Positions 204-14,861 of a DNA stretch of 14,861 nt are shown here, one piece after another. The notes beneath the pieces are model-generated. The model was not told where the DNA came from. It was given only the letters and a program-made list of their open reading frames with translations, and searched no databases. The translations under genes and the position numbers were made by a program. The stretch comes from a virus. Lineage: Duplodnaviria; Heunggongvirae; Uroviricota; Caudoviricetes. The stretch lies in IMG/VR virus record IMGVR_UViG_2778261068_000004; one strand, given 5' to 3'. Each line of letters starts with the position of its first letter. Positions within the stretch are counted from its first letter, which is position 1.

Positions 204-527
204 ATGCTTCTGACAATGGAAGAGATTAAAGCCCAACTCCGGCTGGATGAGGATTTCGATGCTGATGACCGCCATCTGCAACTGCTGGCCTGTGCGGCGC
301 AAAAGCGGACGGAAACGTATCTGAACCGGAAGCTCTATGCACCGGATGAAACCATTCCGGACAGCGATCCGGACGGGCTGCACCTGCCGGATGATATTCG
401 TCTGGGGATGCTGATGCTTATCAGCCATTTTTACGAAAACCGCTCTTCGGTTACGGAAGTGGAGAAACTCGACATGCCGCAGAGTTTTGGCTGGCTTGTC
501 GGCCCGTACAGGTACTTTCCGCAATGA
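204..527 (+). CDS. Head-tail connector / DNA-packaging protein (phage gp6-like family)
   Basis: 107 aa; N-terminus MLLTMEEIKAQLRLDEDFDADDRHLQLLACAAQKRTETYLNRKL matches the pattern I recall for gp6-like head-tail connectors (L-x-E-x-K-x-x-LR-x-D, acidic stretch, then L-x-x-L-I/A-x-AA). Overlaps the next gene by 4 nt (ATGA). Confidence 0.55.
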   Translation: MLLTMEEIKAQLRLDEDFDADDRHLQLLACAAQKRTETYLNRKLYAPDETIPDSDPDGLHLPDDIRLGMLMLISHFYENRSSVTEVEKLDMPQSFGWLVGPYRYFPQ

Positions 528-934
528 AAATTCGTCAGGCGCAGACCAGCGCAACCTACATTCTGCCGGACCCCGGCGAACTGAATAAACGCGTCCTGAT
601 CCGCCAGCGGGTGGATATGCCCGCGGATAACTTTGGCGTGGAGCCTCAATATCCGGTTGCGTTCCGGGCATGGGCGAAGGTTGTCCAGACCAGTGCCACC
701 ACCTGGCAGGAAACCGCGCAGACCGGAGACGCCATCACCCATTACATCACCATTCGCTACCGCCGGGGGATCACCGCTGATTATGAGGTGGTCTGCGGTG
801 ACAGTGTGTACCGGGTGAAACGTCAGCGTGATCTGAACGGGGCGCGGCGCTTTCTGCTGCTGGAGTGTACGGAGCTGGGCGAATTTACGCAGAGTCACGG
901 AGGCAACAATGGCGACTTCCTTTTTGCACGTTGA
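524..934 (+). CDS. Head closure / head-tail adaptor protein (SPP1 gp16 / HK97 gp9-like)
   Basis: 136 aa; contains F-R-A-W-A-K-V ... W-Q-E ... I-T-I-R-Y-R ... Y-R-V ... L-L-L-E-C-T-E, the pattern I associate with phage head-tail adaptor proteins. Position between connector and neck genes fits. Confidence 0.55.
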   Translation: MKIRQAQTSATYILPDPGELNKRVLIRQRVDMPADNFGVEPQYPVAFRAWAKVVQTSATTWQETAQTGDAITHYITIRYRRGITADYEVVCGDSVYRVKRQRDLNGARRFLLLECTELGEFTQSHGGNNGDFLFAR

Positions 935-1415
935 TTTTCAGCAGCCCGCGGAGATGCGCTTTAACCGCGCCCGTGTCCGGCTGGCGTTTGTCACGATTGG
1001 TCAGCGTCATATGCGTGATGCCCGTCGGCTGGTGATGCGCCGTGCGCGGTCGGCACCGGGTGAAAACCCCGGTTATCAGACCGGACGCCTGGCTCGTTCG
1101 ATTGGTTACATGGTACCCAGAGCCAGTAAACATCGTCCTGGTTTTATGGCACGTATAGCCCCTAACCAGCGTAATGGAGAGGGAAACCGCCGTATCACCG
1201 GCGATTTTTATCCGGCTTTTTTGTTCTATGGCGTGAGGCGAGGGGCAAAGCGTCGTCGCAGCCATCATCGTGGTGCATCCGGTGGCAGCGGCTGGCGACT
1301 GGCTCCACGTAATAACTTCATGGTGGAAACGCTTGAAAAGAACCGCAGCTGGACACGCTATTTTCTGGCGCGGGAATTGCGTAAATCACTGAAGCCGGAG
1401 CGACGACACAGATGA
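909..1415 (+). CDS. Neck / tail-completion protein, HK97 gp10-like family
   Basis: 168 aa, very Arg-rich, includes TGRLARSIGY, which resembles the conserved core of HK97 gp10-family proteins. The start is ambiguous (ATG at 909 overlapping the upstream gene, or the internal Met at about 954). Ends in an ATGA overlap with the next gene. Confidence 0.5.
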   Translation: MATSFLHVDFQQPAEMRFNRARVRLAFVTIGQRHMRDARRLVMRRARSAPGENPGYQTGRLARSIGYMVPRASKHRPGFMARIAPNQRNGEGNRRITGDFYPAFLFYGVRRGAKRRRSHHRGASGGSGWRLAPRNNFMVETLEKNRSWTRYFLARELRKSLKPERRHR

Positions 1416-1972
1416 AACTGACGCCTGTTATTGCTGCACTGCGTGCCCGCTGTCCGTATTTTGAAAACCGGGTTGCAGGCGCGGCCCAGTTCAAAAATCT
1501 GCCGGAGGTCGGAAAGCTGAAACTCCCGGCGGCATATGTTGTACCGGGTGATGATTCTCCGGGAGAAAACAAAAGCCAGACCGACTACTGGCAGGAGCTG
1601 AAAGAGGGTTTCTCCGTGGTTGTCATACTGAGTAACGGGCGTGATGAGCGCGGTCAGTTTGCCTCGTATGATGTGGTGGACGATGTCCGGCAGATGCTCT
1701 TTAAGGTCCTGCTGGGCTGGAACCCGGAAGCGTGCGGTAACCCGATTACCTATGACGGCGGCACGCTACTGGATCTGAATCGTCATGAGCTGATTTATCA
1801 GTTCGATTTTTCGGTCATCAGCGAGCTGACCGAAGACGATACCCGCCAGCAGGATGAGCTGAACAGTCTGGATGAACTGCGAACGCTGGCGATTGATGTT
1901 GATTATCTCGATCCCGGTAACGGGCCTGACGGCGATATCGAACATCACACCGAAATAACCCTTCCTTCCTGA
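1412..1972 (+). CDS. Tail terminator / tail completion protein (Mu gp37 / DUF1834-like)
   Basis: 186 aa; N-terminus MKLTPVIAALRARCPYFENRV ... AAYVVPGDD is reminiscent of the Mu-type protein encoded just upstream of the sheath gene. The assignment rests on gene order plus weak motif recall. Confidence 0.45.
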   Translation: MKLTPVIAALRARCPYFENRVAGAAQFKNLPEVGKLKLPAAYVVPGDDSPGENKSQTDYWQELKEGFSVVVILSNGRDERGQFASYDVVDDVRQMLFKVLLGWNPEACGNPITYDGGTLLDLNRHELIYQFDFSVISELTEDDTRQQDELNSLDELRTLAIDVDYLDPGNGPDGDIEHHTEITLPS

Positions 1973-1980
1973 GAATCTTC

Positions 1981-2151
1981 ATGTTTGTGAAACCTGTTAA
2001 AGGGCGGTCAGTGCCTGACCCTGCCCGCGGTGACCTTTTGCCCACCGAAGGGCGAAATGTTGACGAGAACAACTACTGGCTGCGCCGTGAAGCAGCGGGT
2101 GATATCCGGCGCGTGAATAAAAAGGTGAACACCGATGACGATAAGCTTTAA
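1981..2151 (+). CDS. Small (56 aa) protein preceding the sheath gene (Mu gp38-like position); not in the supplied ORF track
   Basis: Read manually: ATG at 1981, TAA at 2149-2151, translation MFVKPVKGRSVPDPARGDLLPTEGRNVDENNYWLRREAAGDIRRVNKKVNTDDDKL. It fills the otherwise unexplained 1973-2134 gap and overlaps the sheath start by 17 nt. Weak ribosome-binding site. Confidence 0.3.
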   Translation: MFVKPVKGRSVPDPARGDLLPTEGRNVDENNYWLRREAAGDIRRVNKKVNTDDDKL

Positions 2152-3631
2152 CACCATTCCGTCGAATACGCTGGTTCCGCTGTTTTATGCGGAAATGGAT
2201 AACCAGGCGGCGAATACTGCACAGGACAGCGGAGCATCGCTGCTGATTGGTCATGCCAATAACGGTGCAGAGATTGTTGCCAACAGTCTGGTGCTGATGC
2301 CGTCGGCAGACTATGCACGCCAGATTTGTGGTGCGGGAAGTCAGCTGGCGCGTATGGTCGAGGCTTATCGCCAGACCGACCCGTTTGGTGAGCTGTATGT
2401 GATTGCCGTTCCGGAAGCCACAGGCGCGGCGGCAACGGTTACGCTGACGGTGACCGGGGAAGCAACCGAAAGCGGCACGGTGAATGTCTATGTGGGACGT
2501 ACCCGCGTGCAGGCTCCGGTGACCAACGGCGATAACGTCACGACGATTGCCAGCAGTATCAAAGATGCCATCAATGCCGTTCCGACTCTGCCGTTTACAG
2601 CTTCATCTTCGGCTGGTGTTGTCACGCTGACCGCGCGTCATAAGGGGCTTTGCGGGAATGAAATTCCTGTCAGCCTCAATTACTACGGCTTCGGTGGGGG
2701 CGAAGTGCTGCCAGCGGGCGTACAGATTGCCGTGGCGACGGGGACCGCCGGAACGGGCGCTCCGGTTCTCACCGGCGCGGTGGCTGCAATGGCGGATGAG
2801 CCGTTTGATTATATCGGTCTGCCGTTCAACGACACGGCCTCCGTTAACACGCTGGTGACCGAGATGAACGATACCAGCGGTCGCTGGAGCTATGCGCGTC
2901 AGCTGTATGGTCATGTGTATACGGCAAAGACCGGCACACTGTCAGAACTGGTGAACGCAGGTGACCAGTTTAACCAGCAGCACATCACCCTGGCGGGGTA
3001 CGAAAAAGAGACCCAGACGCCTGCCGACGAGCTGGCGGCAAGCCGTACCGCCCGCGCAGCGGTGTTTATCCGCAACGATCCGGCACGTCCCACGCAGACC
3101 GGTGAGCTGGTGGGTATGTTGCCTGCGCCGAAGGGGAAACGGTTCACGATGACCGAGCAGCAGACCCTGCTGTCTCATGGCGTGGCAACGGCGTATGTCG
3201 AAAGCGGGGGGCTGCGCATTCAGCGTGATGTCACCACGTACAGGAAAAATGCTTACGGGGTTGCGGATAACAGCTACCTCGACAGCGAGACGCTGCATAC
3301 CAGCGCGTATGTACTGCGCAAACTGAAATCCGTCATTACCAGTAAGTACGGGCGTCACAAGCTTGCCAGCGACGGTACCCGCTTTGGTCCCGGTCAGGCG
3401 ATTGTCACCCCGGCGGTAATCAAAGGGGAACTGCTGGCAACCTACCGTCAGCTTGAGCGTGCGGGGATCGTGGAAAACTACGAACTGTTTAAGCAGTACC
3501 TGGTTGTGGAGCGTGATGCCAGCGATCCGAACCGCCTGAACACGCTGTTCCCGCCTGACTATGTTAACCAGTTGCGTGTTTTTGCCGTGGTTAACCAGTT
3601 CCGTCTTCAGTATTCAGAGGAGTCTGCATAA
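2135..3631 (+). CDS. Contractile tail sheath protein (Mu gpL / gp39-like)
   Basis: 498 aa; AAGGTG Shine-Dalgarno 8 nt upstream of the ATG. Size, position and N-terminus (MTISFNTIPSNTLVPLFYAEMDN) are typical of Mu-type sheath proteins. TAATG overlap with the tube gene. Confidence 0.8.
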   Translation: MTISFNTIPSNTLVPLFYAEMDNQAANTAQDSGASLLIGHANNGAEIVANSLVLMPSADYARQICGAGSQLARMVEAYRQTDPFGELYVIAVPEATGAAATVTLTVTGEATESGTVNVYVGRTRVQAPVTNGDNVTTIASSIKDAINAVPTLPFTASSSAGVVTLTARHKGLCGNEIPVSLNYYGFGGGEVLPAGVQIAVATGTAGTGAPVLTGAVAAMADEPFDYIGLPFNDTASVNTLVTEMNDTSGRWSYARQLYGHVYTAKTGTLSELVNAGDQFNQQHITLAGYEKETQTPADELAASRTARAAVFIRNDPARPTQTGELVGMLPAPKGKRFTMTEQQTLLSHGVATAYVESGGLRIQRDVTTYRKNAYGVADNSYLDSETLHTSAYVLRKLKSVITSKYGRHKLASDGTRFGPGQAIVTPAVIKGELLATYRQLERAGIVENYELFKQYLVVERDASDPNRLNTLFPPDYVNQLRVFAVVNQFRLQYSEESA

Positions 3632-3987
3632 TGGCCCGTATCGGGGGAACCTGTTATTTCAAAATTGACGGTCAGCAGCTATCGCTGACCGGCGGCATTG
3701 AGGTGCCCATGAACAGGACGGTCAATGATGACATCATCGGCCTGGACGGTTCAGTGGACCGCAAGGAAACTCACCGTGCGCCTTATGTCAAAGGGACCTT
3801 CAAGGTGCCGAAGAATTTTCCGGTGAGCAAAATCACCTCGTCTGATGAGATGACCATCACTGCCGAGCTGGCGAACGGTCAGGTCTATGTATTGTCGTCC
3901 GCCTGGCTGCACGGAGAAGCGAACCATAATGCCGAAGAAGGCACGGTTGATCTTGAGTTCCACGGTGAAGAAGGGGATTACCAGTAA
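3631..3987 (+). CDS. Tail tube protein (Mu gpM / gp40-like)
   Basis: 118 aa, immediately downstream of the sheath gene with stop/start overlap. Size and order match the canonical myophage sheath-tube pair. Confidence 0.75.
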   Translation: MARIGGTCYFKIDGQQLSLTGGIEVPMNRTVNDDIIGLDGSVDRKETHRAPYVKGTFKVPKNFPVSKITSSDEMTITAELANGQVYVLSSAWLHGEANHNAEEGTVDLEFHGEEGDYQ

Positions 3988-4256
3988 TGAAAGAGCTTGA
4001 GTTAAAGAAACCGATTATCGCTCATGGTGAGACACTCTCCGTACTGGAGTTTGATGAACCCACCGGGAAGGATGTCCGCGAGCTGGGGTATCCCTACCAG
4101 ATGAATCAGGATGAGTCCGTCAGACTTCTGGCGCATGTGGTGTCGAAATACATTGTGCGGCTGGCGAAAGTGCCGCAAAGCTCTGTCGACCAGATGTCTC
4201 CGGCAGACCTGAATGCAGCGGCGTGGCTTGTGGCTGGTTTTTTCCTCCAGGCCTGA
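3987..4256 (+). CDS. Tail assembly chaperone, short (zero-frame) form
   Basis: 89 aa ORF between tube and tape measure genes, the conserved position of lambda G / Mu gp41-type chaperones. A T-TTT-TTC slippery heptamer lies at 4238-4244, just before its stop codon. Confidence 0.65.
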   Translation: MKELELKKPIIAHGETLSVLEFDEPTGKDVRELGYPYQMNQDESVRLLAHVVSKYIVRLAKVPQSSVDQMSPADLNAAAWLVAGFFLQA

Positions 4257-4405: not shown

Positions 4406-6233
4406 ATTTGAGCTTAAGGCGTTGATCACCGGTGTCGACAGGCTTTCTCCCGCGCTGTCGAAAATGCAAAAGAAAATCCGGGGATTTAAACGCCAGGCGG
4501 AAGAGGCGTCACAGGGTGGGCTGGCGCTTGGTGGCGGACTGGCAGCGGGGCTGACGCTTTCCCTGAAATCTTATGCCGATCAGGAAAACGCCGCTACCGG
4601 GCTGAAAGTCGCCATGATGGATGCGAACGGCGAGGTTGGAAAGAGCTTTCAGGACATCAATAAACTGGCTATTGGCCTGGGTAACCAGCTACCCGGTACA
4701 ACGACTGATTTCCAGAACATGATGCAGATGCTGGTGCGTCAGGGGATCCCGGCAGAAAACATTCTGGGTGGTGTGGGTAAAGCGACAGCTTATCTTGCGG
4801 TACAACTGAAAAAAACACCGGAAGCGGCTGCCGAGTTTGCCGCAAAGATGCAGGATGCTACCGGAACGGCCTCAGAAGACATGATGGGGCTGTTCGACAC
4901 AATTCAGAAGGCGTTTTATCTGGGCGTTGACGACACCAACATGCTGTCATTCTTCACTAAAACCAGCTCTGTTCTGAAGATGGTGAATAAGGACGGTCTT
5001 CAGGCTGCACAGAGTCTTGCCCCCATCAGTGTCATGATGGATCAGATGGGGATGAACGGGGAGTCGGCAGGTAATGCCCTGCGAAAAGTTATCCAGTCCG
5101 GATTAAGCGTTAAGAAAATCAGGGACGTCAATAAAATCATGGCCCGCCAGAAACTCGGGGTACAGCTCGATTTTACTGATGGCAAAGGGAGTTTTGGCGG
5201 TCTTGATAACATGTTCAGGCAACTGGCAAAGCTGCGAAAACTGACCGACGTTAAGCGAACAGGTGTACTTAAGGCAATATTTGGTGATGATGCCGAAACC
5301 CTTCAGGTGGTCAATGCACTAATCGATAAAGGAAAGGATGGCTACGATCAGATCCAGCAGAAGATGAATAAACAGGCCAGCCTGAATAAACGTGTTCAGG
5401 CCCAGCTTGGTACGCTGTCCAACCTGTGGGAGGCAATGACGGGGACCGCAACTAACGGCCTTGCGGCTATTGGCGGCGCATTTTCTGGTGACGCCAAAAA
5501 TATCACGCAATGGCTGGGGGAGTTAGGGGAAAAATTCACGAAGTTTGCGGATGAAAATCCCCGGGTTATTCGCGGCGTCGTCGGGCTTGCTGCCGGTCTT
5601 GCGATTCTGAAACTGGGATTGATGGGCGTTGGCGGTGCCATCAGTATTGTCAGCAGGATCATGTCGATGACGCCGATTGGCATGATTGCGACGGCGATAG
5701 CCCTGGCTGCGGGATTAATTATCACTAACTGGGATGTTGTCGGACCTTATTTCAAGAAGCTCTGGGAAACCATTGGTCCTTATTTTGAGGCTGGCTGGGA
5801 ACTTCTGAAGAAGGTTTTTGCCTGGTCGCCGCTGGGGATGGTAATCAATAACTGGGGACCGGTTGTTAAGTGGTTTCAGGATATGTGGGACAAGCTGAAG
5901 CCAATTATTGAGTGGTTTACCGACAGTTCCGGTGACACGGTCGATGCCATTAACTCTGCGCAGTGGGGCGCGGGTGCTTATGATGCTTATGGGACGGGAA
6001 TACCGGCACGGGGATACACACCTTATCAGGCGGTAGATCCGGCTCAGTCAAACAACGCCTCCGATGCCACAGGCCCGAATCCCTTCATGATTAACAAAGC
6101 TTCTGAGCCAAAAGTTGATGGTGAGATCAAGGTCTCTTTTGTGAATTCGCCTCCGGGTATGCGGGTTATGGAAACGCGATCCAGCGGTTTTGATGTCAGC
6201 CATGATGTTGGCTATACGCGCTTTGGCAGGTAA
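4398..6233 (+). CDS. Tail tape measure protein
   Basis: 611 aa. N-terminal region has the core I recall for tape measure proteins (LPGTTTDFQNMMQMLVRQGIPAENILGG ... AAEFAAKMQDATGT). Also has long Gly/Ala-rich hydrophobic segments and C-terminal Trp repeats spaced about 11 residues apart. Sits directly after the chaperone pair. Confidence 0.85.
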   Translation: MAEFELKALITGVDRLSPALSKMQKKIRGFKRQAEEASQGGLALGGGLAAGLTLSLKSYADQENAATGLKVAMMDANGEVGKSFQDINKLAIGLGNQLPGTTTDFQNMMQMLVRQGIPAENILGGVGKATAYLAVQLKKTPEAAAEFAAKMQDATGTASEDMMGLFDTIQKAFYLGVDDTNMLSFFTKTSSVLKMVNKDGLQAAQSLAPISVMMDQMGMNGESAGNALRKVIQSGLSVKKIRDVNKIMARQKLGVQLDFTDGKGSFGGLDNMFRQLAKLRKLTDVKRTGVLKAIFGDDAETLQVVNALIDKGKDGYDQIQQKMNKQASLNKRVQAQLGTLSNLWEAMTGTATNGLAAIGGAFSGDAKNITQWLGELGEKFTKFADENPRVIRGVVGLAAGLAILKLGLMGVGGAISIVSRIMSMTPIGMIATAIALAAGLIITNWDVVGPYFKKLWETIGPYFEAGWELLKKVFAWSPLGMVINNWGPVVKWFQDMWDKLKPIIEWFTDSSGDTVDAINSAQWGAGAYDAYGTGIPARGYTPYQAVDPAQSNNASDATGPNPFMINKASEPKVDGEIKVSFVNSPPGMRVMETRSSGFDVSHDVGYTRFGR

Positions 6234-6253
6234 TGAAAAATTAATCTGTTAAT

Positions 6254-6293: not shown

Positions 6294-7622
6294 ATGACGT
6301 GGAAAGACAGACTTCAGGACGCGTCATTTCGCGGTGTGCCGTTTAAGGTTGAAGAAGAAAGTGCGGGAACCGGTCGTCGTGTGGAAACGCACGAATACCC
6401 GAACCGCGACAAACCCTATACCGAAGACCTGGGGAAAATCACTTTCCGCCCGTCCATCACAGCTTATGTGGTGGGAGATGACTGCTTTGACCAGCGCGAT
6501 CGCCTGATTGACGCGCTGAATAAACCCGGTCCCGGCACGCTTGTCCATCCGACTTACGGTGAGCTGAAAGTCTGTGTTGACGGGGAAGTTCGGGTCAGCA
6601 CATCGAAGAGTGAAGGGCGTATTGTCCGCTTTGACCTGAAGTTTGTCGAAGCGGGAGAACTCTCTTACCCCACTTCAGGTGCGGCGACGGCGCAGACGCT
6701 GATGTCATCCTGTTCTGCACTGGATGACTGCATCAGTGACAGCTTCAGTTGTTTCAGTATCGATGGCGTGGCAGATTTTGTGCAGAACGACGTCGTCGGT
6801 AATGCCAGCACAATGCTTGGGTATGTTTCTGATGCGATAAAAGTGGTGGATTCTGCCGTATCGGATGCCGCCAGGCTGTTGCAGGGGGATATCTCGGTAC
6901 TTCTGCCGCCGCCATCGTCAGGCAAAAATTTCGTTGAGCAGGTGCAGAAAATGTGGCGTACCGGGAAACGCCTTTATGGTAACGCCAGCGACCTGGTCAC
7001 CATGATCAAAACGCTTTCTGGTGTCAGCCTCGGCAGCGATTTGCAACCGCGCGGCGTCTGGAAAACGGACAGTAAAACCACCGCCACAGCGACGCAGCAG
7101 CGTAACGTGGTTGCCAGCACTCTTCGTACGACTGCAATCAGCGAAGCGGCGTATGCCGTCACACGATTGCCTGCGCCAACAACTCCCGCGGTGATGCAGA
7201 ATGCCGCAGTGGGGCAGTCAACAACACCCGCGCAGAGCACCGGCTGGCCTTCCGTCACGCATCCGGCACTGAACAATGCACCTGCGGTGAAAAACACGGT
7301 TGACCTGCCAACGTGGGAAGAACTGACCGACATTCGCGACACAATGAATACGGCAATTGATAAGGAGTTGTCCCGTACAACCAGTGATGCGCTGTTTCTG
7401 GCGCTGCGCCGGGTGAAAGCAGATCTGAATGCGGATATCAACACGCGCCTTGAACAGTCTGCGCGGATCATTCAGCGCACGCCGGATGAGGTTTTACCCG
7501 CGCTGGTGCTGGCGGCGACCTGGTTTGATAACGCGGCGCGTGACGTGGACCTTATCCGGCGTAATGCTATTACGCATCCCGGCTTTGTGCCGGTGATCCC
7601 TCTGAAGGTGCCAGTGCAATGA
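6294..7622 (+). CDS. DNA circulation protein (Mu gp43-like), baseplate-associated
   Basis: N-terminus MTWKDRLQDASFRGVPFKVEEESAGTGRRVETHEYPNRDKPY matches the DNA circulation N-terminal domain as I recall it. GGAG sits 5 nt before ATG 6294; the track start at 6252 would lie inside the hairpin, so 6294 is preferred. Thr/Ala/Pro-rich linker in the C-terminal half. Confidence 0.7.
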   Translation: MTWKDRLQDASFRGVPFKVEEESAGTGRRVETHEYPNRDKPYTEDLGKITFRPSITAYVVGDDCFDQRDRLIDALNKPGPGTLVHPTYGELKVCVDGEVRVSTSKSEGRIVRFDLKFVEAGELSYPTSGAATAQTLMSSCSALDDCISDSFSCFSIDGVADFVQNDVVGNASTMLGYVSDAIKVVDSAVSDAARLLQGDISVLLPPPSSGKNFVEQVQKMWRTGKRLYGNASDLVTMIKTLSGVSLGSDLQPRGVWKTDSKTTATATQQRNVVASTLRTTAISEAAYAVTRLPAPTTPAVMQNAAVGQSTTPAQSTGWPSVTHPALNNAPAVKNTVDLPTWEELTDIRDTMNTAIDKELSRTTSDALFLALRRVKADLNADINTRLEQSARIIQRTPDEVLPALVLAATWFDNAARDVDLIRRNAITHPGFVPVIPLKVPVQ

Positions 7623-8698
7623 ACGACAATGTCACGCTACGGGTAAATGGCCGGGAGTGGAATGGCTGGACATCGGTGCGCATCGGTGCCGGTATTGAAC
7701 GGCTGGCACGGGATTTCAGTGTGGAGATCACCCGCCAGTGGCCGGGAGATGAGGGTATCACCACGCTTCAGCCGCGTATTAAAAACGGTTCAAAAGTGGA
7801 AGTTCTGATTGGTGATGAGCTGGTGATCACCGGCTGGGTGGAGGCGACGCCCGTTCGTTACGATGCCCGTTCGGTCAGCACCGGTATTGCCGGACGCAGT
7901 CTGACCGCTGACCTGATTGACTGTGCAGCCGAACCGACACAGTTTAACGGACGATCGCTGGTACAGATTGCGCAGGCGCTTGCTGCGCCTTTCGGCATTG
8001 AGGTGGTGAACAACGGTGCGCCGTCGGGTGTTATTCCGGATGTCCAGCCTGATCACGGCGAAACGGTGATCGAGGTGATCAACAAAATACTCGGTCAGCA
8101 GCAGGCACTGGCTTACGACGACCCGCACGGCAGGCTGGTGATTGGCGGTATTGGCTCAACGCGGGCACATACCGCGCTGGTACTCGGGGAAAACATCCTT
8201 TCCTGCGATACGGAGAAGAGTATCCGGGAGCGGTTTTCTGTTTACCAGGTGGCGGGGCAGCGTGCCGGAAACGACGATGATTTCGGTGAGGCCACCACCA
8301 CCGCGCTGCGGGCCCGCACAGAGGACGCATTTATTTCCCGTTACCGTCCGATGTATATCAGGCAGACAGGGCAGGCCACGGGGGCAGGCTGTATTGCCCG
8401 TGCTGACTTTGAAGCCCGACAACGGGCGGCGCGGACGGATGAAACCACCTATGTGGTGCAGGGCTGGCGACAGGGTAACGGTACGCTGTGGCAGCCCAAC
8501 CAGCGGGTGATTGTCTTCGATCCGGTCTGTGGTTTCGACAATACCGAACTGCTTGTCTCGGAAGTCACGTTTACTCAGGACCAGAATGGCACCCTGACGG
8601 AAATCCGTGTCGGCCCACCTGATGCTTATCTGCCTGAACCCGAAGCCCCCGGCGCGCGGAAAAAGAAAAAAGCCAGAGTACAGGAGGACCCGTTCTGA
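7619..8698 (+). CDS. Baseplate hub protein (Mu gp44 / P2 gpD-like)
   Basis: 359 aa; ATGA overlap with the upstream gene and TGATG overlap with the downstream gene. Position and size match the Mu-type hub protein. Confidence 0.7.
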   Translation: MNDNVTLRVNGREWNGWTSVRIGAGIERLARDFSVEITRQWPGDEGITTLQPRIKNGSKVEVLIGDELVITGWVEATPVRYDARSVSTGIAGRSLTADLIDCAAEPTQFNGRSLVQIAQALAAPFGIEVVNNGAPSGVIPDVQPDHGETVIEVINKILGQQQALAYDDPHGRLVIGGIGSTRAHTALVLGENILSCDTEKSIRERFSVYQVAGQRAGNDDDFGEATTTALRARTEDAFISRYRPMYIRQTGQATGAGCIARADFEARQRAARTDETTYVVQGWRQGNGTLWQPNQRVIVFDPVCGFDNTELLVSEVTFTQDQNGTLTEIRVGPPDAYLPEPEAPGARKKKKARVQEDPF

Positions 8699-9246
8699 TG
8701 AAGGCGATTGAAACCATACAGCGACAACTCCTCGGCCTGATTGGGCGGGCCGTGGTGAAAAGCATCAGTGCCGCCACGAAATGTCAGACCGTGGATGTGT
8801 CCCTGATTGCCGGTGAACCCAAAGCCGGGGTTGAACATCTCGAACCCTACGGTTTTACCGCAAGGGCAAACAGCGGTGCGGAAGCGGTGGTGTTGTTTCC
8901 GGATGGCGACCGTTCTCATGCGGTGGTTGTTACGGTGTCGGACCGTCGCTACCGCCTGAAAGGGCTGCAGACGGGTGAGGTGGCTGTCTATGACGATCAG
9001 GGGCAGTCCGTGACGCTGACCCGGGAGGGGATCGTGGTGGACGGTGCAGGTAAAACGATCACGTTTCGCAATGCACCTGAAGCACGTTTTGAAATGGACC
9101 TGGAAGTGACCGGACAGGTGAAAGACCTGTGCGACTCCGGCGGCACCACCATGTCAGCGATGCGGCTTGCCTATAACGGGCATCGTCACAGAGAGAACGG
9201 TCAGGGCAGTAACACCGACAAACCTGATAAAGCGATGGAGGCATGA
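8698..9246 (+). CDS. Baseplate spike / assembly protein V (Mu gp45 / P2 gpV-like)
   Basis: 182 aa; a His-Arg-His motif (YNGHRHRENGQG) near the C-terminus resembles the histidine-containing tip of gpV-type spikes. Gene order hub-spike-gp46-gp47. Confidence 0.7.
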   Translation: MKAIETIQRQLLGLIGRAVVKSISAATKCQTVDVSLIAGEPKAGVEHLEPYGFTARANSGAEAVVLFPDGDRSHAVVVTVSDRRYRLKGLQTGEVAVYDDQGQSVTLTREGIVVDGAGKTITFRNAPEARFEMDLEVTGQVKDLCDSGGTTMSAMRLAYNGHRHRENGQGSNTDKPDKAMEA

Positions 9247-9671
9247 TGGAAGTGTGGCTGACGGTGAACGGTAAACGCACCTGCGCCAGCGCATCGCTGG
9301 ATCCGCTGACCCGCGCCGTGGTGATTTCCCTGTTTACCTGGCGGCGGGCGGAGCCTGATGACAATGCCGACGTCCCGATGGGATGGTGGGGGGATACCTG
9401 GCCTGCGGTACAGAATGACCGTTACGGCTCCCGACTGTGGCTGCTTCAACGCAGCAAACTGACCAATCAACTGGTGCAGACGGTAAGGGGGTATATCCGC
9501 GAATGCCTGCAATGGATGATTGATGACGGCGTGGTGTCCCGTATTGATCTGGATATCCGCCGCACCGGGATTAATGAACTGGGTAACAGTATCACTCTCT
9601 GGCGTCGTGACGGACCGGTAATGGTTTCTTTTGATGATCTGTGGAGTGCGATAACGCATGGCGGACAGTGA
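9243..9671 (+). CDS. Baseplate protein, Mu gp46 / P2 gpW / T4 gp25-like
   Basis: 142 aa small protein between the spike and J-like genes. Start is ATG at 9243 or 9246 (ATGATG). Confidence 0.65.
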   Translation: MMEVWLTVNGKRTCASASLDPLTRAVVISLFTWRRAEPDDNADVPMGWWGDTWPAVQNDRYGSRLWLLQRSKLTNQLVQTVRGYIRECLQWMIDDGVVSRIDLDIRRTGINELGNSITLWRRDGPVMVSFDDLWSAITHGGQ

Positions 9672-10716
9672 ATTTCAGCGCCCGACGCTGGCAGAAAATA
9701 TCAGTATGCTCCGTAACGATTTATTCGCCAGGCTGGACGTCAGCGACACGCTCCGGCGTATGGATGAAGACGTGCGGGCAAAGGTGTATGCGGCGGCGCT
9801 GCATACGGTTTACGGGTACATCGATTATCTGGCAATGAACATGCTGCCTGACCTGTGCGATGAGTCCTGGCTGGCGCGACATGCTGCGATGAAACGGTGT
9901 CCGCGCAAGGGGGCCACGGCTGCCAGCGGGTATATGCGCTGGGAAGGTGTCAGCGATGGCCTGAAGGTGACCGCCGGGAGTGTTATTCAGCGCGATGACC
10001 TGGTTCAGTACACGGCAACTGCCGATGCAACCAGCGCCGGTGGTGTCCTGCGCGTGCCGATCGCCTGCTCAAGTGCAGGCGCGGTCGGTAACGCTGACGA
10101 CGGTACGTCATTAATCCTGGTCACGCCGGTGAATGGTCTGCCGTCTTCCGGCGTGGCAGATACCCTGACAGGTGGATTCGATACTGAAGAGCTGGAAACG
10201 TGGCGCGCCCGCGTCATTGAGCGGTATTACTGGACGCCTCAGGGCGGGGCTGACGGGGACTATGTCGTCTGGGCTAAAGAAGTGCCCGGCATTACCCGCG
10301 CATGGACATACCGTCACTGGATGGGAACGGGAACTGTCGGTGTGATGATTGCCAGCAGTGACCTGATTAATCCCATTCCGGAAGAATCAACGGAAACGGC
10401 AGCAAGACAACATATCGGGCCACTGGCCCCGGTGGCAGGCTCTGATTTGTATGTATTCAGGCCGGTGGCGCATAAAGTGGATTTTCATATCCGTGTGACG
10501 CCGGACACACCGGAAATACGGGCTGCCATCACCGCCGAGTTGCGTTCGTTCCTGCTGCGTGATGGTTATCCGCAGGGAGAACTGAAGGTGTCGCGTATCA
10601 GTGAGGCGATTTCCGGTGCGAACGGGGAATACAGCCATCAGTTGCTTGCACCGGCAGACAATATCTCCATTGCAAAAAATGAACTGGCGGTTCTGGGGAC
10701 GATTTCATGGACGTGA
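9658..10716 (+). CDS. Baseplate J-like protein (Mu gp47 / P2 gpJ-like)
   Basis: 352 aa; position and size match the baseplate J-like wedge protein of Mu/P2-type tails. Overlaps both neighbours. Confidence 0.75.
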
Positions 10717-11291
10717 CAAACGATGATTACATTCGCCTGTTGTCAGCACTGTTGCCGCCCGGTCCGGCGTGGTCAGCCAGCGATCCGGCGATTGCCGGTG
10801 CGGCACCGTCATTAACCCGCATTCATCAGCGTGCGGATGCCCTGATGCGGGAGCTGGATCCGCGCACCACCACCGAACTGATAAACCGCTGGGAGCGCCT
10901 GTGCGGTCTGCCGGATGAATGTATTCCGGCAGGGACACAGACCCTTCGCCAGCGTCAGCAACGGCTGGATGCGAAGGTTAACCTGGCGGGCGGCATCAAC
11001 GAGGATTTTTATCTTGCCCAGCTTGCTGCCCTGGGCAGACCAGATGCCACCATCACGCGATACGACAAAAGCACCTTCACCTGCTCATCGGCCTGTACTG
11101 ACGCGGTGAATGCGCCGGAATGGCGGTATTACTGGCAGGTCAACATGCCAGCTGCCACCAACACCACCTGGATGACATGTGGCGATCCCTGTGATTCCGC
11201 TCTGCGTATCTGGGGCGACACCGTTGTCGAGTGTGTGCTTAACAAACTCTGCCCGTCGCATACCTACGTAATTTTTAAATATCCGGAGTAA
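10707..11291 (+). CDS. Baseplate / tail-fibre attachment protein (Mu gp48 / e14 YmfQ-like, DUF2313)
   Basis: 194 aa; the same length and position as YmfQ of the E. coli e14 element as I remember it, directly upstream of the tail fibre gene. Confidence 0.65.
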
Positions 11292-11294
11292 TCC

Positions 11295-12035
11295 ATGCAT
11301 CGTATAGACACGAAAACCGCGCAGAAGGATAAGTTCGGCGCGGGTAAGAACGGTTTTACCCGTGGTAACCCCCAGACCGGCACACCTGCCACCGATCTGG
11401 ATGATGACTACTTTGACATGTTGCAGGAGGAGCTTTGCAGCGTTGTGGAGGCATCCGGTGCCAGTCTGGAGAAGGCGCGGCATGACCAGCTGCTTACCGC
11501 GCTTCGTGCGCTGCTGTTAAGCCGCAAGAATCCGTTTGGCGATATCAAATCGGATGGCACGGTGAAAACGGCTCTCGAAAACCTTGGTTTAGGAGAAGGC
11601 TCAGCATTGCCTGTTGGCGTACCTGTTCCGTGGCCCTCAGCCACTCCGCCAACAGGCTGGCTAAAATGCAACGGAGCAGCTTTTTCTGCTGAAGAATACC
11701 CGGAACTGGCAAAGGCTTACCCGACAAATAAATTGCCTGATTTACGTGGTGAGTTTATTCGTGGCTGGGATGATGGGCGCGGCATTGATACAGGGCGTGC
11801 TTTATTGAGTATTCAGAGTGATGAAGTCAGAAAGCTCGCATTAAAATACTGGGGGCCAGCTTCAAACAGTTCACCATCAAAAACATTTGCACTCAGCGAC
11901 AGTGCCGGTGGCGGGTTGTACACGGATGGAATAAGTCAGGCAAGCGGTGGGATTATCAACGCTTTTCAGCTCCCCGGCGGGAGTGAAACCCGTCCACGAA
12001 ATATTGCATTTAACTATATCGTGAGGGCTGCATAA
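11295..12035 (+). CDS. stf: Side tail fibre, currently expressed isoform (constant N-terminal part plus cassette A tip)
   Basis: 246 aa; GGAG 7 nt upstream. N-terminus [26 protein letters not shown] is the Mu S / e14 StfP-type N-terminus. The variable part after the crossover motif ENLGLGEG carries a phage tail-collar-like motif (PVPWP ... [23 protein letters not shown] ... [12 protein letters not shown]). Confidence 0.8.
11572..11597. repeat. Left hix/gix/pix-like recombination site (12-2-12, core TT) inside the tail fibre gene
   Basis: CTCTCGAAAACC-TT-GGTTTAGGAGAA. Quasi-palindromic and close to the Hin site TTCTTGAAAACC-AA-GGTTTTTGATAA as I recall it. The core TT occupies positions 2-3 of the Leu codon in ENLGLGEG. 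Confidence 0.6.
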
Positions 12036-12637
12036 TGGATAACGCCGTATTAAATAGCGAGCTTATTGCCACGAAGGCGGGGAATATTACCGTCTATAAC
12101 TATGATGGTGAAACTCGGGAATATATTTCCACATCAAATGAATATCTTGCCATTGGTGTCGGTATCCCTGCATATTCCTGTTTAGATGCGCCAGTTACAC
12201 ATAAAGCTGGTTATGCTATCTGCCGCTCAGCAGATTTTAACTCATGGGAATATGTGCCAGACCATCGCGGTGAAATTGTCTATAACACCGAAACGGGAGA
12301 TGCCAAAGAAATCACAGCACCAGGCGACTATCCCGAAAAAACAACCACTCTCGCACCGTTAACGCCATACGATAAATGGGATGGTGAGAAATGGGTGACC
12401 GATACTGAGGCACAGCATAGCGCCGCAGTAGAAGCGGCAGAAGCACAGCGCCAGTCGCTGATTGATGCTGCAATGGCTTCTATCAGTCTGATTCAACTGA
12501 AATTACAGGCCGGGCGGAAGCTGACGCAGACAGAAAACACCCGACTTAACGCCGTGCTGGATTACATTGACGCGGTGACGGCAACAGATACCAGCACCGC
12601 GCCGGATGTCATCTGGCCTGAACTGCCGGAGGCGTAG
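12035..12637 (+). CDS. tfa: Tail fibre assembly protein (cassette A)
   Basis: 200 aa; TAATG overlap with stf. N-terminus [30 protein letters not shown] is typical Tfa. C-terminal motif LNAVLDYIDAVTATDTSTAPDVIWPELP is shared with the opposite-strand paralogue. Confidence 0.8.
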   Translation: MDNAVLNSELIATKAGNITVYNYDGETREYISTSNEYLAIGVGIPAYSCLDAPVTHKAGYAICRSADFNSWEYVPDHRGEIVYNTETGDAKEITAPGDYPEKTTTLAPLTPYDKWDGEKWVTDTEAQHSAAVEAAEAQRQSLIDAAMASISLIQLKLQAGRKLTQTENTRLNAVLDYIDAVTATDTSTAPDVIWPELPEA

Positions 12638-13052
12638 GCCATTCAATATCTGGAGCACTGGAGGTATCAACCAGTTCCAGTGCGTCCAGATAATCCAGCC
12701 ACAAATTATATTGCGCCAGTTCCTCACCTTTCAGACGACCAATAGCTGCTTTGCCAGGCCATTGCTTACTGTTCATATATTCGTTGGCATTATCAATAAG
12801 ATTTTGCTTTTGAGCTGTGGCAAGGAGCATTGCTTCTTCAGGAGCCATTGGTAGAATATCAACCCACTTAGGTTGTCCATCATCATTTGCACCGCGCGCT
12901 TTCCCTTCAGGTGGTGTTCCTGAATAAGTCAAAAATATTTCATCAGATACTGGTGTAATATCATCCGGTAAGCTGTCATATGAGCGATATAGCTCCAGCA
13001 TATCTACCGGATAAAAAGCTAACGTCGTCCGTGAAAAATAATAATTACTCAT
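12609..13052 (-). CDS. tfa: Tail fibre assembly protein (cassette B, silent in this orientation)
   Basis: 147 aa on the minus strand; C-terminus YNLWLDYLDALELVDTSSAPDIEWPTPP parallels the Tfa motif of cassette A. Its 3' end overlaps the 3' end of the + strand tfa by 29 nt. Confidence 0.75.
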   Translation of the reverse strand: MSNYYFSRTTLAFYPVDMLELYRSYDSLPDDITPVSDEIFLTYSGTPPEGKARGANDDGQPKWVDILPMAPEEAMLLATAQKQNLIDNANEYMNSKQWPGKAAIGRLKGEELAQYNLWLDYLDALELVDTSSAPDIEWPTPPAVQAR

Positions 13053-13053
13053 A

Positions 13054-13407
13054 TCAGCACCCTATTGCAAACCAGCGAAAATTATAATTGCCACCAGAAG
13101 CATCACAGCGTAGAAGAAATCCTGTCCTGGTCATATTCCCTGCTGCCCCGGCAACAATTTTTCCGCCACCATTATCGTAGGACGTCACCACCTGAAAACA
13201 TTGTGACGGAAAAGCGATTGGGAAATTCATCTCATTGCCTGTCGAGCCTACATAACCCGTACCTGCATCTCCTGCCCCCCATTGGATAATCAATCCTCCC
13301 GGTAACTTCTGATATCCCTTGCTGGCAATGCTGCCAGAAAAAGAACTCATATCCGGTATCTGACCTGAACCTGTTCCTACATTTCGTTTTGCCGCTTCTC
13401 CCAAACC
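13054..13407 (-). CDS. stf: Promoterless alternative tail-fibre C-terminal cassette (tip B); becomes fused to the stf N-terminus after inversion
   Basis: Minus-strand frame reads ...INVGLGEAAKRNVGTGSG...GYQKLPGGLIIQWG...NFPIAFPSQCFQVV...GFLLRCDASGGNYNFRWFAIGC, resembling Mu S / lambda Stf-type C-terminal receptor-binding domains. It is in frame with the stf constant part across the crossover core. The Met codons at 13449 upstream are probably not used. Confidence 0.65.
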   Translation of the reverse strand, partial: GLGEAAKRNVGTGSGQIPDMSSFSGSIASKGYQKLPGGLIIQWGAGDAGTGYVGSTGNEMNFPIAFPSQCFQVVTSYDNGGGKIVAGAAGNMTRTGFLLRCDASGGNYNFRWFAIGC

Positions 13408-13421
13408 AACGTTTATGAAAA
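13396..13421. repeat. Right hix/gix/pix-like recombination site (12-2-12, core AA on top strand, i.e. inverted relative to the left site)
   Basis: TTCTCCCAAACC-AA-CGTTTATGAAAA. Its reverse complement shares about 19 of 21 nt with the left site around the core (AAACSTTGGTTTRGGAGAAG). Lies 55 nt upstream of the invertase ATG. Confidence 0.6.
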
Positions 13422-13475
13422 TGAAGAAATAACAAGCAAATGGCATCATTCCTGCTTTTACCAGGGGGATTTAAC

Positions 13476-14030
13476 ATGCTTATTGGCTATGTACGCGTAT
13501 CAACAAATGACCAGAACACAGATCTACAACGTAATGCGCTGAACTGTGCAGGATGCGAGCTGATTTTTGAAGACAAGATAAGCGGCACAAAGTCCGAAAG
13601 GCCGGGACTGAAAAAACTGCTCAGGACATTATCGGCAGGTGACACTCTGGTTGTCTGGAAGCTGGATCGGCTGGGGCGTAGTATGCGGCATCTTGTCGTG
13701 CTGGTGGAGGAGTTGCGCGAACGAGGCATCAACTTTCGTAGTCTGACGGATTCAATTGATACCAGCACACCAATGGGACGCTTTTTCTTTCATGTGATGG
13801 GTGCCCTGGCTGAAATGGAGCGTGAACTGATTGTTGAACGAACAAAAGCTGGACTGGAAACTGCTCGTGCACAGGGACGAATTGGTGGACGTCGTCCCAA
13901 ACTTACACCAGAACAATGGGCACAAGCTGGACGATTAATTGCAGCAGGAACTCCTCGCCAGAAGGTGGCAATTATCTATGATGTGGGGGTATCGACTTTG
14001 TATAAGAAGTTTCCGGTCGGAGATAAATGA
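13476..14030 (+). CDS. pin: Serine DNA invertase (Pin/Gin/Hin/Cin family)
   Basis: 184 aa from ATG 13476, with AGGGGG Shine-Dalgarno 8 nt upstream; the track's 13440 start adds 12 unlikely residues. MLIGYVRVSTNDQNTDLQ carries the catalytic Ser of small serine recombinases; GRRPKLTPEQ and the C-terminal HTH are as in Pin/Gin. Appears nearly identical to E. coli e14 Pin from memory. Confidence 0.9.
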   Translation: MLIGYVRVSTNDQNTDLQRNALNCAGCELIFEDKISGTKSERPGLKKLLRTLSAGDTLVVWKLDRLGRSMRHLVVLVEELRERGINFRSLTDSIDTSTPMGRFFFHVMGALAEMERELIVERTKAGLETARAQGRIGGRRPKLTPEQWAQAGRLIAAGTPRQKVAIIYDVGVSTLYKKFPVGDK

Positions 14031-14032
14031 AA

Positions 14033-14065
14033 CCGTAGCACGTCGTATGCAAGATCGTGCTGCGG
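14033..14065. terminator. Putative bidirectional terminator hairpin between the convergent pin and GIY-YIG genes
   Basis: CCGTAGCACG (14033-14042) pairs with CGTGCTGCGG (14056-14065), 10 bp including one G-U, with a 13-nt loop. T-rich on the + strand after the stem (TTTATGCTTAT) and on the - strand after the stem (complement of GATAAATGAAA). Confidence 0.35.
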
Positions 14066-14087
14066 TTTATGCTTATCACTTAAAGAC

Positions 14088-14861
<774 letters not shown>

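Follow-up and report, generated by a model that had tools for sequence, protein, structure and literature searches.

The P segment and pin invertase gene of a probable e14-family prophage in a virus record of the Caudoviricetes

Gene content of the locus

The window analyzed here, meaning the whole stretch of 14,861 nucleotides from IMG/VR virus record IMGVR_UViG_2778261068_000004, contains a tail fibre locus followed by a DNA invertase gene. The first gene of interest (10707..11291, plus strand) encodes a baseplate wedge protein of the YmfQ / Mu gp48 type (Pfam Phage_Mu_Gp48, E 3.4e-26). It is annotated as ymfQ in relatives and lies directly upstream of stf, placed like Mup48 before Mu S. The stf reading frame (11295-12035, plus strand) is composed of two parts. 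Its constant N-terminal part comprises 97 codons (11295..11585), ends in ...TALENL and lies outside the invertible segment; it shares 96% nucleotide identity with the 5' part of K-12 ycfK/stfP and is the same in both orientations of the natural genome pairs described below. The variable tip A (11586..12035, plus strand) is now joined to this constant part, giving a 246-aa Stf. Tip A carries a tail-collar domain (Pfam Collar, E 1.2e-15, residues 108-155) and matches PHROG tail fibre families. Its proximal part is 91% identical to K-12 stfE, and its distal part (11817-11984) is without a K-12 match. Tip A is followed on the same strand by the gene for a 200-aa tail fibre assembly chaperone of the TfaE type (12035..12637; Caudo_TAP, E 5.8e-32; phrog_105, E 6e-98), annotated as tfaE in relatives.

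A second cassette is encoded on the minus strand. It includes an alternative 147-aa assembly chaperone (12609..13052; Pfam Caudo_TAP, E 3.1e-28), the gene for which is convergent with tfaE and overlaps it by 29 nt at the 3' end, and the variable tip B (13054..13407), which has a gp53-like C-terminal domain (Pfam Gp53-like_C, E 2.7e-20) and occupies a non-fibre position in the present orientation. The locus thus has the architecture of host-range-type fibres, in which a constant N-terminal part is in frame with alternative tips, each with a cognate chaperone. Beyond tip B, a short minus-strand leader (MMPFACYFFIFINV, 13408..13449) has its own ATG outside the segment and reads into whichever cassette faces pin. 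The pin gene itself (13476..14030, plus strand) encodes a 184-aa DNA invertase with Resolvase (PF00239, E 3e-51) and HTH_7 (PF02796, E 6e-15) domains. Its true start is at 13476, as opposed to the ATG at 13440 in the mechanical list of reading frames. The gene is located outside the segment, with transcription directed away from it. The copies of pin and of the TfaE-type gene in relatives carry the automatic annotations pinE and tfaE.

On the basis of these features, we identify the locus, with a probability of about 0.9, as the P segment and pin of an e14-family prophage, that is, an element with an HK97-like head and a Mu-like contractile tail that is integrated at icd. Contig PTRR01000006.1 (GCA_002965665.1), which is 100% identical to the window over 7295-14861, contains an icd (Iso_dh) remnant downstream of the element. 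The phage record ON470584 (vB_EcoM-689R6) was considered as an isolated complete relative and rejected: the record is partial, includes host genes, stops at the invertible segment and is informative only on which genes a full-length e14-type prophage contains.

Inversion sites, reading frames and natural inversion

Two 26-bp recombination sites (pix), for which no strand is assigned, lie in inverted orientation, CTCTCGAAAACCTTGGTTTAGGAGAA at 11572-11597 and TTCTCCCAAACCAACGTTTATGAAAA at 13396-13421. The left site reads CTCTCGAAAACC-TT-GGTTTAGGAGAA, with its core at 11584-11585, and the right site reads TTCTCCCAAACC-AA-CGTTTATGAAAA, whose core at 13408-13409 is TT when read on the minus strand. 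The four half-sites (CTCTCGAAAACC, TTCTCCTAAACC, TTCTCCCAAACC, TTTTCATAAACG) form imperfect 12-bp inverted halves around each 2-bp core. When the sites are read from outer to inner half-site, both cores are TT, matching and non-palindromic. A repeat search recovered 20-nt arms common to both sites with 90% complementarity. When the whole window was searched with the degenerate invertase-site pattern TTCTCNNAAACCWWSGTTT at up to two mismatches, matches occurred only at the two pix sites, on both strands of each. The chance expectation is 0.02 matches, and none of 200 shuffles reached four.

Compared with the annotated Mu gix and P1 cixL sites, the pix sites show 17-21 identities in 26 positions; the left site has 21/26 in common with cixL and 19/26 with gix. 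The right site matches its K-12 e14 equivalent at every position (26/26), and the left site differs from its K-12 counterpart at one position (25/26), a G to A change at 11591 that leaves a synonymous Leu codon. Among GTDB species representatives, the exact right site was found at only three loci, of which two belong to E. coli records and one to a Shigella flexneri record. A preliminary description of this DNA had proposed two inverted 26-bp sites of the Hin/Gin type; their coordinates and letters proved exact, they are the only such sites of the window, and their type is borne out by these identities.

The core dinucleotides are placed identically with respect to both reading frames. Counting from the stf start at 11295, codon 97 occupies 11583-11585 (CTT, Leu), with the TT core at its positions 2-3. 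In the minus-strand frame ending at 13054, the codon at 13410-13408 (GTT, Val) again has the core at positions 2-3. With each core at positions 2-3 of the codon that precedes GLGE, either tip joins the constant Stf N-terminus in frame. Inversion between the cores in silico yielded an open fusion of 214 aa (...TALENL|GLGEAAKRN...), with the 147-aa alternative tfa beginning 1 nt past the stop codon of the fused stf. This fibre is identical at 213 of 214 residues to an annotated protein of strain 21EVA, a natural genome in which the segment is reversed. The same description had claimed this codon phase in both frames, an in-frame junction of the N-terminus of about 97 aa to the alternative tip with the alternative tfa behind it, and a copy that appears to have every part. 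All three hold: the recombinase, the sites, two tips and two chaperones were found intact.

Three near-isogenic pairs of genomes differ by inversion of the P segment. APEC 102026 and 21EVA are otherwise separated by 3 SNPs in 9,146 bp, and the cattle strains 118 and 119 by no differences in 9,172 bp. In the pair GCA_053259035 and L725, the flanks are 100% identical and there are two mismatches inside. In the three pairs, the breakpoints fall in the 16-bp sequence TTGGTTTGGGAGAAG, the left limit of which is exactly CC|TT, the predicted core. In EC17CM13 and L035, the A variant at 11591 moves with the collar cassette, which narrows the breakpoint interval to TTGGTTT. At one locus of clonal cattle isolates, five strains are in one state and ten in the other among the matches listed. 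Of 5,426 complete E. coli genomes, about 3,700 contain P segment or Pin matches. A junction census of the same 5,426 genomes showed both junction types to be common, with 516 for the collar cassette with the constant part and 906 for the collar cassette with the pin flank. The segment therefore occurs in both orientations among homologous prophages, exchanged exactly at the pix sites. These natural pairs provide a clean confirmation of the crossover position by sequence only, and breaks or differences between assemblies are to be expected at the P-segment locus.

The natural products also bear on the possibility that the sites are chance inverted repeats in tail fibre genes, due to the conserved GLGE-coding motif and not to selection for recombination. 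Part of the conservation of the inner half-sites is due to coding constraint, as these encode the conserved peptide NLGLGE. However, the outer half-site of the right site fits the 12-bp pattern despite its different sequence context, only 0.02 matches are expected by chance, and a cognate invertase lies 55 bp away. We gave this explanation practically no weight, and it is already refuted by the inversion products of the three pairs, which break exactly at these sites.

The Pin invertase and its relation to known switches

Pin is 99% identical to K-12 PinE and 79% identical to Gin of Mu and D108 (phrog_125 DNA invertase, E 1e-96), and it has the catalytic Ser9 within MLIGYVRVST. In Hin, residues Q151, R154 and L155, together with basic residues 47, 48 and 51, contact Fis and the enhancer (PMC3798978). 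The first three correspond to Q150, R153 and L154 of Pin, and the basic residues K46, K47 and R50 are also present. A stretch inside the 5' end of pin (13494..13565, plus strand), approximately 95 bp from the right site, is presumed to be the Fis-bound recombinational enhancer. It matches the position of the enhancer annotated in P1 cin (gene nt 19-90) and is identical to it at 57 of 72 nucleotides. We compared synonymous sites of pin with those of cin, gin and three other invertases: against cin, conservation was 55% in the presumed enhancer and 40% in the rest of the gene, and against gin the two values were 50% and 43%. This excess is slight and was not used as evidence; the presumed enhancer therefore rests on homology and position, not on an independent signal.

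The closest known system is that of K-12 e14. Its gene order (ymfQ, stf, tfa, tfa', stf', pin) and leader reading frame are shared with the window, and the distance between sites is 1,827 bp compared with 1,824 bp here. The interval 13395-13720, which spans the right site, the pin promoter region and the first 245 nt of pin including the presumed enhancer, is 100% identical in the two. The MG1655 reference orientation is opposite to that of the window, which also has other alleles of distal tip A and of the whole of tip B and its Tfa. In K-12, jayE and beeE are pseudogenes, whereas the upstream tail module of the window is uninterrupted, and mcrA lies downstream of pin where the window has PD-T4-3.

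Inversion of the P segment in K-12 e14 has been documented by experiment (Goldberg et al. 2014, PMC4272514, citing the earlier papers of Plasterk & van de Putte 1985 and Mehta et al. 2004), and Kirigo et al. (2025, PMC12529663) reported that the segment inverts and that deletion of pinE locks it. Knowledge of the P segment and Pin of e14 dates back to the 1980s, and inversion by PinE was published in 1985, 2014 and 2025. As this inversion is already published, our interpretation is supported and contains no novelty. The earlier characterization of K-12 e14 as a defective remnant is accurate for the rest of the prophage but not for the switch itself, which is intact and active in K-12.

By extension from these relatives, the window's own copy would be expected to switch. 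It is very improbable that it is a frozen relic that has all parts and no longer inverts, for example as a result of the G to A change in the left site or of two C-terminal Pin substitutions relative to PinE (K178, V181). Some relatives are clearly locked: pin is truncated in strain 82.0311 and several draft genomes, and in strain T22 the invertase of a P2-like phage is frameshifted. The window, however, encodes a full-length Pin that retains every catalytic and Fis-contact residue. K178 and V181 are also found in strain 118, in which the locus flips between clonal isolates, and in L725, for which a flipped counterpart exists. The A-variant half-site GGTTTAGGAGAA is one position off the P1 cixL inner half-site GGTTTAAGAGAA, and EC17CM13 and L035 carry this variant on the pin side, which shows that it has taken part in recombination. 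We rejected this reading on the grounds of the full-length Pin, the flipping relatives and the cis region identical to that of active K-12.

The Mu G segment, with which the locus had been equated in logic, agrees with it in gene order, frame and invertase placement. The operon order of Mu and D108 (baseplate J (gp47), gp48, S, U, U', S', gin) matches the window, and gin, like pin, is outside the segment and transcribed away from it. In Mu, the core likewise occupies positions 2-3 of a codon, that of the Leu in QNL|GLQE, for which the window has a homologous NL|GL motif. In contrast, Mu has a segment of about 3 kb, a constant part of about 170 aa, long S tips and a TC core, compared with 1.8 kb, 97 aa, tips of 149 and 117 aa and a TT core in the window. 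The Mu sites are embedded in longer 34-bp inverted repeats. The P1 C segment and Cin share the invertase family, the site type and the TT core with the window; the P1 segment is larger (4.2 kb versus 1.82 kb). Transcription of cin, which lies on the opposite side, runs towards the segment; as a result, cixL overlaps the 3' end of the gene, and about 500 bp separate the enhancer from the site. Salmonella Hin belongs to the same recombinase subfamily as Pin, uses the Fis/enhancer mechanism that is proposed for Pin and has its enhancer about 100 bp from the nearer site. However, Hin lies inside its own segment and flips a promoter instead of exchanging coding cassettes, and no tail fibre genes are involved.

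Predicted outputs of the switch

By analogy with Hin, Gin and Cin, Pin dimers would bind both pix sites and be activated by the Fis-bound enhancer in the 5' coding region of pin. Pin would then make cuts staggered by 2 bp at the central TT/AA of both sites, one half would rotate by 180 degrees and religation would follow, resulting in inversion of the 1.82-kb segment 11586-13407. The constant N-terminus would be driven by the late tail operon. A scan of 11000-14200 for promoters and terminators gave counts as expected by chance, with none above chance on either strand, and expression from the upstream late operon is thus an assumption. In the present state, the N-terminus would be produced with tip A, followed by TfaE; in the inverted state, it would be produced with tip B as a 214-aa Stf, followed by the 147-aa Tfa. 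Given in-frame fusion to either tip, a lysogen population would release virions carrying either of two receptor-binding tips.

Mu and P1 provide the precedent that flipping may change host range in the e14 family. In the literature on e14-family phages, a host-range effect of P inversion is not reported, and the function of PinE inversion has been described as 'not clear' (PMC12529663). As the Mu-like tail module upstream is uninterrupted, the present copy is usable for testing host-range change in an e14-family phage.

The leader provides the minus strand with a potential product of its own. In the present orientation, the leader-initiated frame (13054-13449) encodes 131 aa, with the ATG and 14-15 codons beyond the invertible segment; after inversion, it would encode 163 aa. 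The minus-strand cassette had been called silent, but it is not simply lacking a promoter and start, having its own ATG and leader codons.

It is conceivable, if rather unlikely, that the switch acts as an anti-phage device for the lysogen, besides or in place of its role in the virion. A truncated tip protein in free form, made of the leader and the tip facing pin, would mask receptors of the outer membrane, and the present product, leader plus gp53-like tip, would correspond to the 'defence-on' state of K-12. In K-12, StfE2 expression lowers T2 adsorption, and protection requires inversion (PMC12529663). In line with this report, the leader is the same as that of K-12 stfE/StfE2, the orientation of the window is the inverted state of K-12, PGAP calls the leader-initiated frame as a gene in relatives, and the adjoining PD-T4-3 is a known defence gene. 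However, the gp53-like tip is a diverged allele relative to K-12 StfP, with no match at the DNA level over 12814-13372, and the 131-aa frame has no match in PADLOC. The chance-level promoter scan of the minus strand, on which AGGA lies only 0-3 nt from the ATGs, likewise weighs against such a product. The K-12 adsorption assay used plasmid expression and came from one laboratory, and the uninterrupted upstream tail module argues for the virion as the primary role.

With the exchange of fibre tips on the virion as the preferred reading, a combined one would be slightly more speculative than the anti-phage device: in an e14-family prophage whose tail module is uninterrupted, a bifunctional switch may, in either orientation, place one tip on the virion fibre while the other, produced in the lysogen and fused to the short leader, acts as a free protein that masks a surface receptor and excludes other phages. 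If true, the StfE2 effect in K-12 would be the normal second output of the switch and not an oddity due to prophage decay. New tip alleles, the gp53-like one included, would then lead to new exclusion spectra.

Sites, reading frame and gene order

The invertible switch in the tail fibre gene is real, and the preliminary description located and interpreted it correctly. Its two 26-bp recombination (pix) sites lie in inverted orientation at exactly the positions claimed (11572-11597 and 13396-13421). When the whole 14,861-bp window was scanned with a degenerate invertase-site pattern, allowing up to two mismatches, these two places alone were matched, against a chance expectation of 0.02. Codon 97 of the stf ORF (11295-12035) is CTT (11583-11585), so the core TT occupies codon positions 2-3. 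The core has the same phase in the minus-strand ORF ending at 13054, where the codon is GTT (13410-13408); the phase proposed for both frames is therefore correct. When 11586-13407 is inverted in silico, the resulting Stf is an open frame of 214 aa (...TALENL/GLGEAAKRN...), with the 147-aa alternative tfa starting one base past its stop. This bears out the in-frame fusion of the constant part (stf codons 1-97) to the alternative tip, with the alternative tfa behind it.

Genes in the window were assigned using Pfam and PHROGs. They comprise Baseplate J (9658-10716, +), a Mu gp48-like protein (YmfQ; 10707-11291, +), Stf with a tail-collar domain (11295-12035, +), a Caudo_TAP chaperone of 200 aa (12035-12637, +), a second Caudo_TAP chaperone of 147 aa (12609-13052, -), a gp53-like C-terminal tip (13054-13449, -) and pin, a 184-aa recombinase with Resolvase and HTH_7 domains (13476-14030, +). 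Between 204 and 12637 every tail ORF is open, and the series is collinear with that of the annotated L725 prophage, to which it is 97% identical. In strain L725, an additional minus-strand OB-fold gene (L001 9737-10183) separates the tape-measure and DNA-circularisation genes; it is absent from the window (corresponding position 6233-6252).

Phage Mu has the same gene order (gp47, gp48, S, U, U', S', gin), and the comparison with the Mu G segment is apt. The Mu core likewise falls at codon positions 2-3, in the Leu of QNL/GLQE, so crossing over in frame is homologous between the two systems and was inherited. The window sites share 19 of 26 positions with Mu gix and 21 of 26 with P1 cixL. In P1, the Cin enhancer is annotated at nt 19-90 of cin; the matching stretch of pin (13494-13565), about 95 bp from the right site, is identical at 57 of 72 positions. 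A synonymous-site test for an enhancer in pin was only weakly positive. In addition, Pin keeps Q150, R153 and L154, as well as K46, K47 and R50, residues specific to Fis-dependent invertases (PMC3798978).

Relation to the e14 P segment of E. coli K-12

The window system is the P segment of the cryptic prophage e14, a textbook system already known and annotated by genome pipelines. The e14 sites of K-12 MG1655 are CTCTCGAAAACCTTGGTTTGGGAGAA and TTCTCCCAAACCAACGTTTATGAAAA; the right site is identical to that of the window, whereas the left differs by one synonymous base (11591, G in K-12 and A in the window). K-12 and the window are 100% identical over the right site, the intergenic sequence that follows and the 5' 245 nt of pin. 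K-12 PinE is 99% identical to the window Pin, with two C-terminal substitutions that also occur in relatives. Contig PTRR01000006.1 (GCA_002965665.1), 100% identical to 7295-14861, carries an icd remnant directly past the element, and icd is the e14 attachment site. In contrast, the MG1655 reference has the opposite orientation, and K-12 e14 has other alleles for distal tip A (11817-11984), all of tip B and the tip B chaperone. No DNA match was found in K-12 e14 for 11817-11984 or for 12814-13372 (nearly all of tip B), and the flanking parts are 87-96% identical. Unmatched tips between conserved flanks amount to cassette-level mosaicism of the receptor-binding ends.

The preliminary description took K-12 e14 for a defective remnant. 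The surrounding prophage has indeed decayed, but the switch itself is intact and active in K-12. Sequencing and PCR revealed both orientations side by side in clonal cultures derived from MG1655 (Goldberg et al. 2014, PMC4272514). The P segment was reported as 1,797 bp with repeats TTGGTTTGGGAGAAGG, with about 30% inversion in the wild type, locked pinE mutants, and inverted copies present in 33% of 562 genomes (Kirigo et al. 2025, PMC12529663). The same authors called the function of PinE inversion unclear. Host-range switching in e14-family phages would follow by analogy with Mu and P1.

The minus-strand cassette, previously termed silent, is not simply so: an ATG and leader outside the segment read into the pin-facing cassette. 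This leader, of 14-15 codons, is identical to that of K-12, and the leader-fused ORF is 131 aa at present (13054-13449, -) and 163 aa once inverted. In its present orientation, the ORF is the analogue of StfE2, the leader-fused chimera of K-12, but its tip allele has diverged. StfE2 is reported to prevent the adsorption of T2 (Kirigo et al. 2025, PMC12529663). No promoter was found for the predicted ORF 13054-13449.

Inversion among natural isolates

Genome comparisons show that these sites do undergo inversion in nature. In APEC 102026 and 21EVA the prophage is the same, and so are the accessions of the flanking proteins; an exact inversion and three SNPs are the only differences over 9,146 bp. 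For cattle strains 118 and 119, inversion is the sole difference over 9,172 bp. Base-by-base mapping in these two pairs places the breakpoint within TTGGTTTGGGAGAAG, its left limit falling exactly at the predicted CC/TT boundary. Likewise, GCA_053259035 and L725 have identical flanks (2 x 2,490 bp) and a segment inverted with two mismatches. The 11591 A variant accompanies the collar cassette where this faces pin (EC17CM13 and the related locus L035); since the variant stays with the cassette, parsimony narrows the crossover to TTGGTTT. Among the clonal cattle isolates listed, 5 and 10 strains are in opposite states at one chromosomal position. A junction count over 5,426 complete E. coli genomes found the collar cassette attached to the constant part in 516 of them and adjoining the pin flank in 906.

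Some copies are rearranged or interrupted. One P segment matches that of the window at 99.5% identity, but at L035 4956-5130 (GCA_025599845.1, JAOSFR010000001.1) its collar end adjoins a second outer half-site of the pin type together with 93 nt left over from pin, not the constant stf part. This suggests either that pix sites belonging to two different prophage remnants recombined, in a larger rearrangement of the chromosome, or that the assembly is wrong. Draft-genome contigs with the exact Stf (L022, L023, L024, L025, L026) break off within the invertible segment or at its edge; L024 ends at 6097, and one draft contig ends 5 bp short of the right pix site. Such ends would be expected from mixed orientations or repeated pin regions in short-read assemblies.

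Neighbouring genes and movement of the module

The gene directly after pin (14088-14861, -) is the anti-phage GIY-YIG nuclease PD-T4-3 (PADLOC, E 9.6e-140; Pfam LEM-3_GIY-YIG). Its position holds mcrA in K-12 e14 and in record ON470584, and GmrSD or DUF262 proteins in other relatives. Since the genes beside pin differ among relatives, this position looks like an exchangeable slot for defence genes. Three related loci (L009 4993-5175, L020 6134-6325 and L018) have an identical 246-aa Stf and a truncated or missing pin, followed by a GmrSD/DUF262 gene. Presumably, these loci can no longer leave the orientation seen in the window.

Parts of the module are also found at 507-3995 of NC_041848 (L015), a P2-like phage from E. 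coli O157:H43 T22. In this unrelated myophage, a P2-type fibre gene precedes the tip, chaperone and invertase parts, which cover 54% of the query at about 89% identity; the invertase has a frameshift after about residue 128. The entire invertible module moves between tail types, at times in a locked state.
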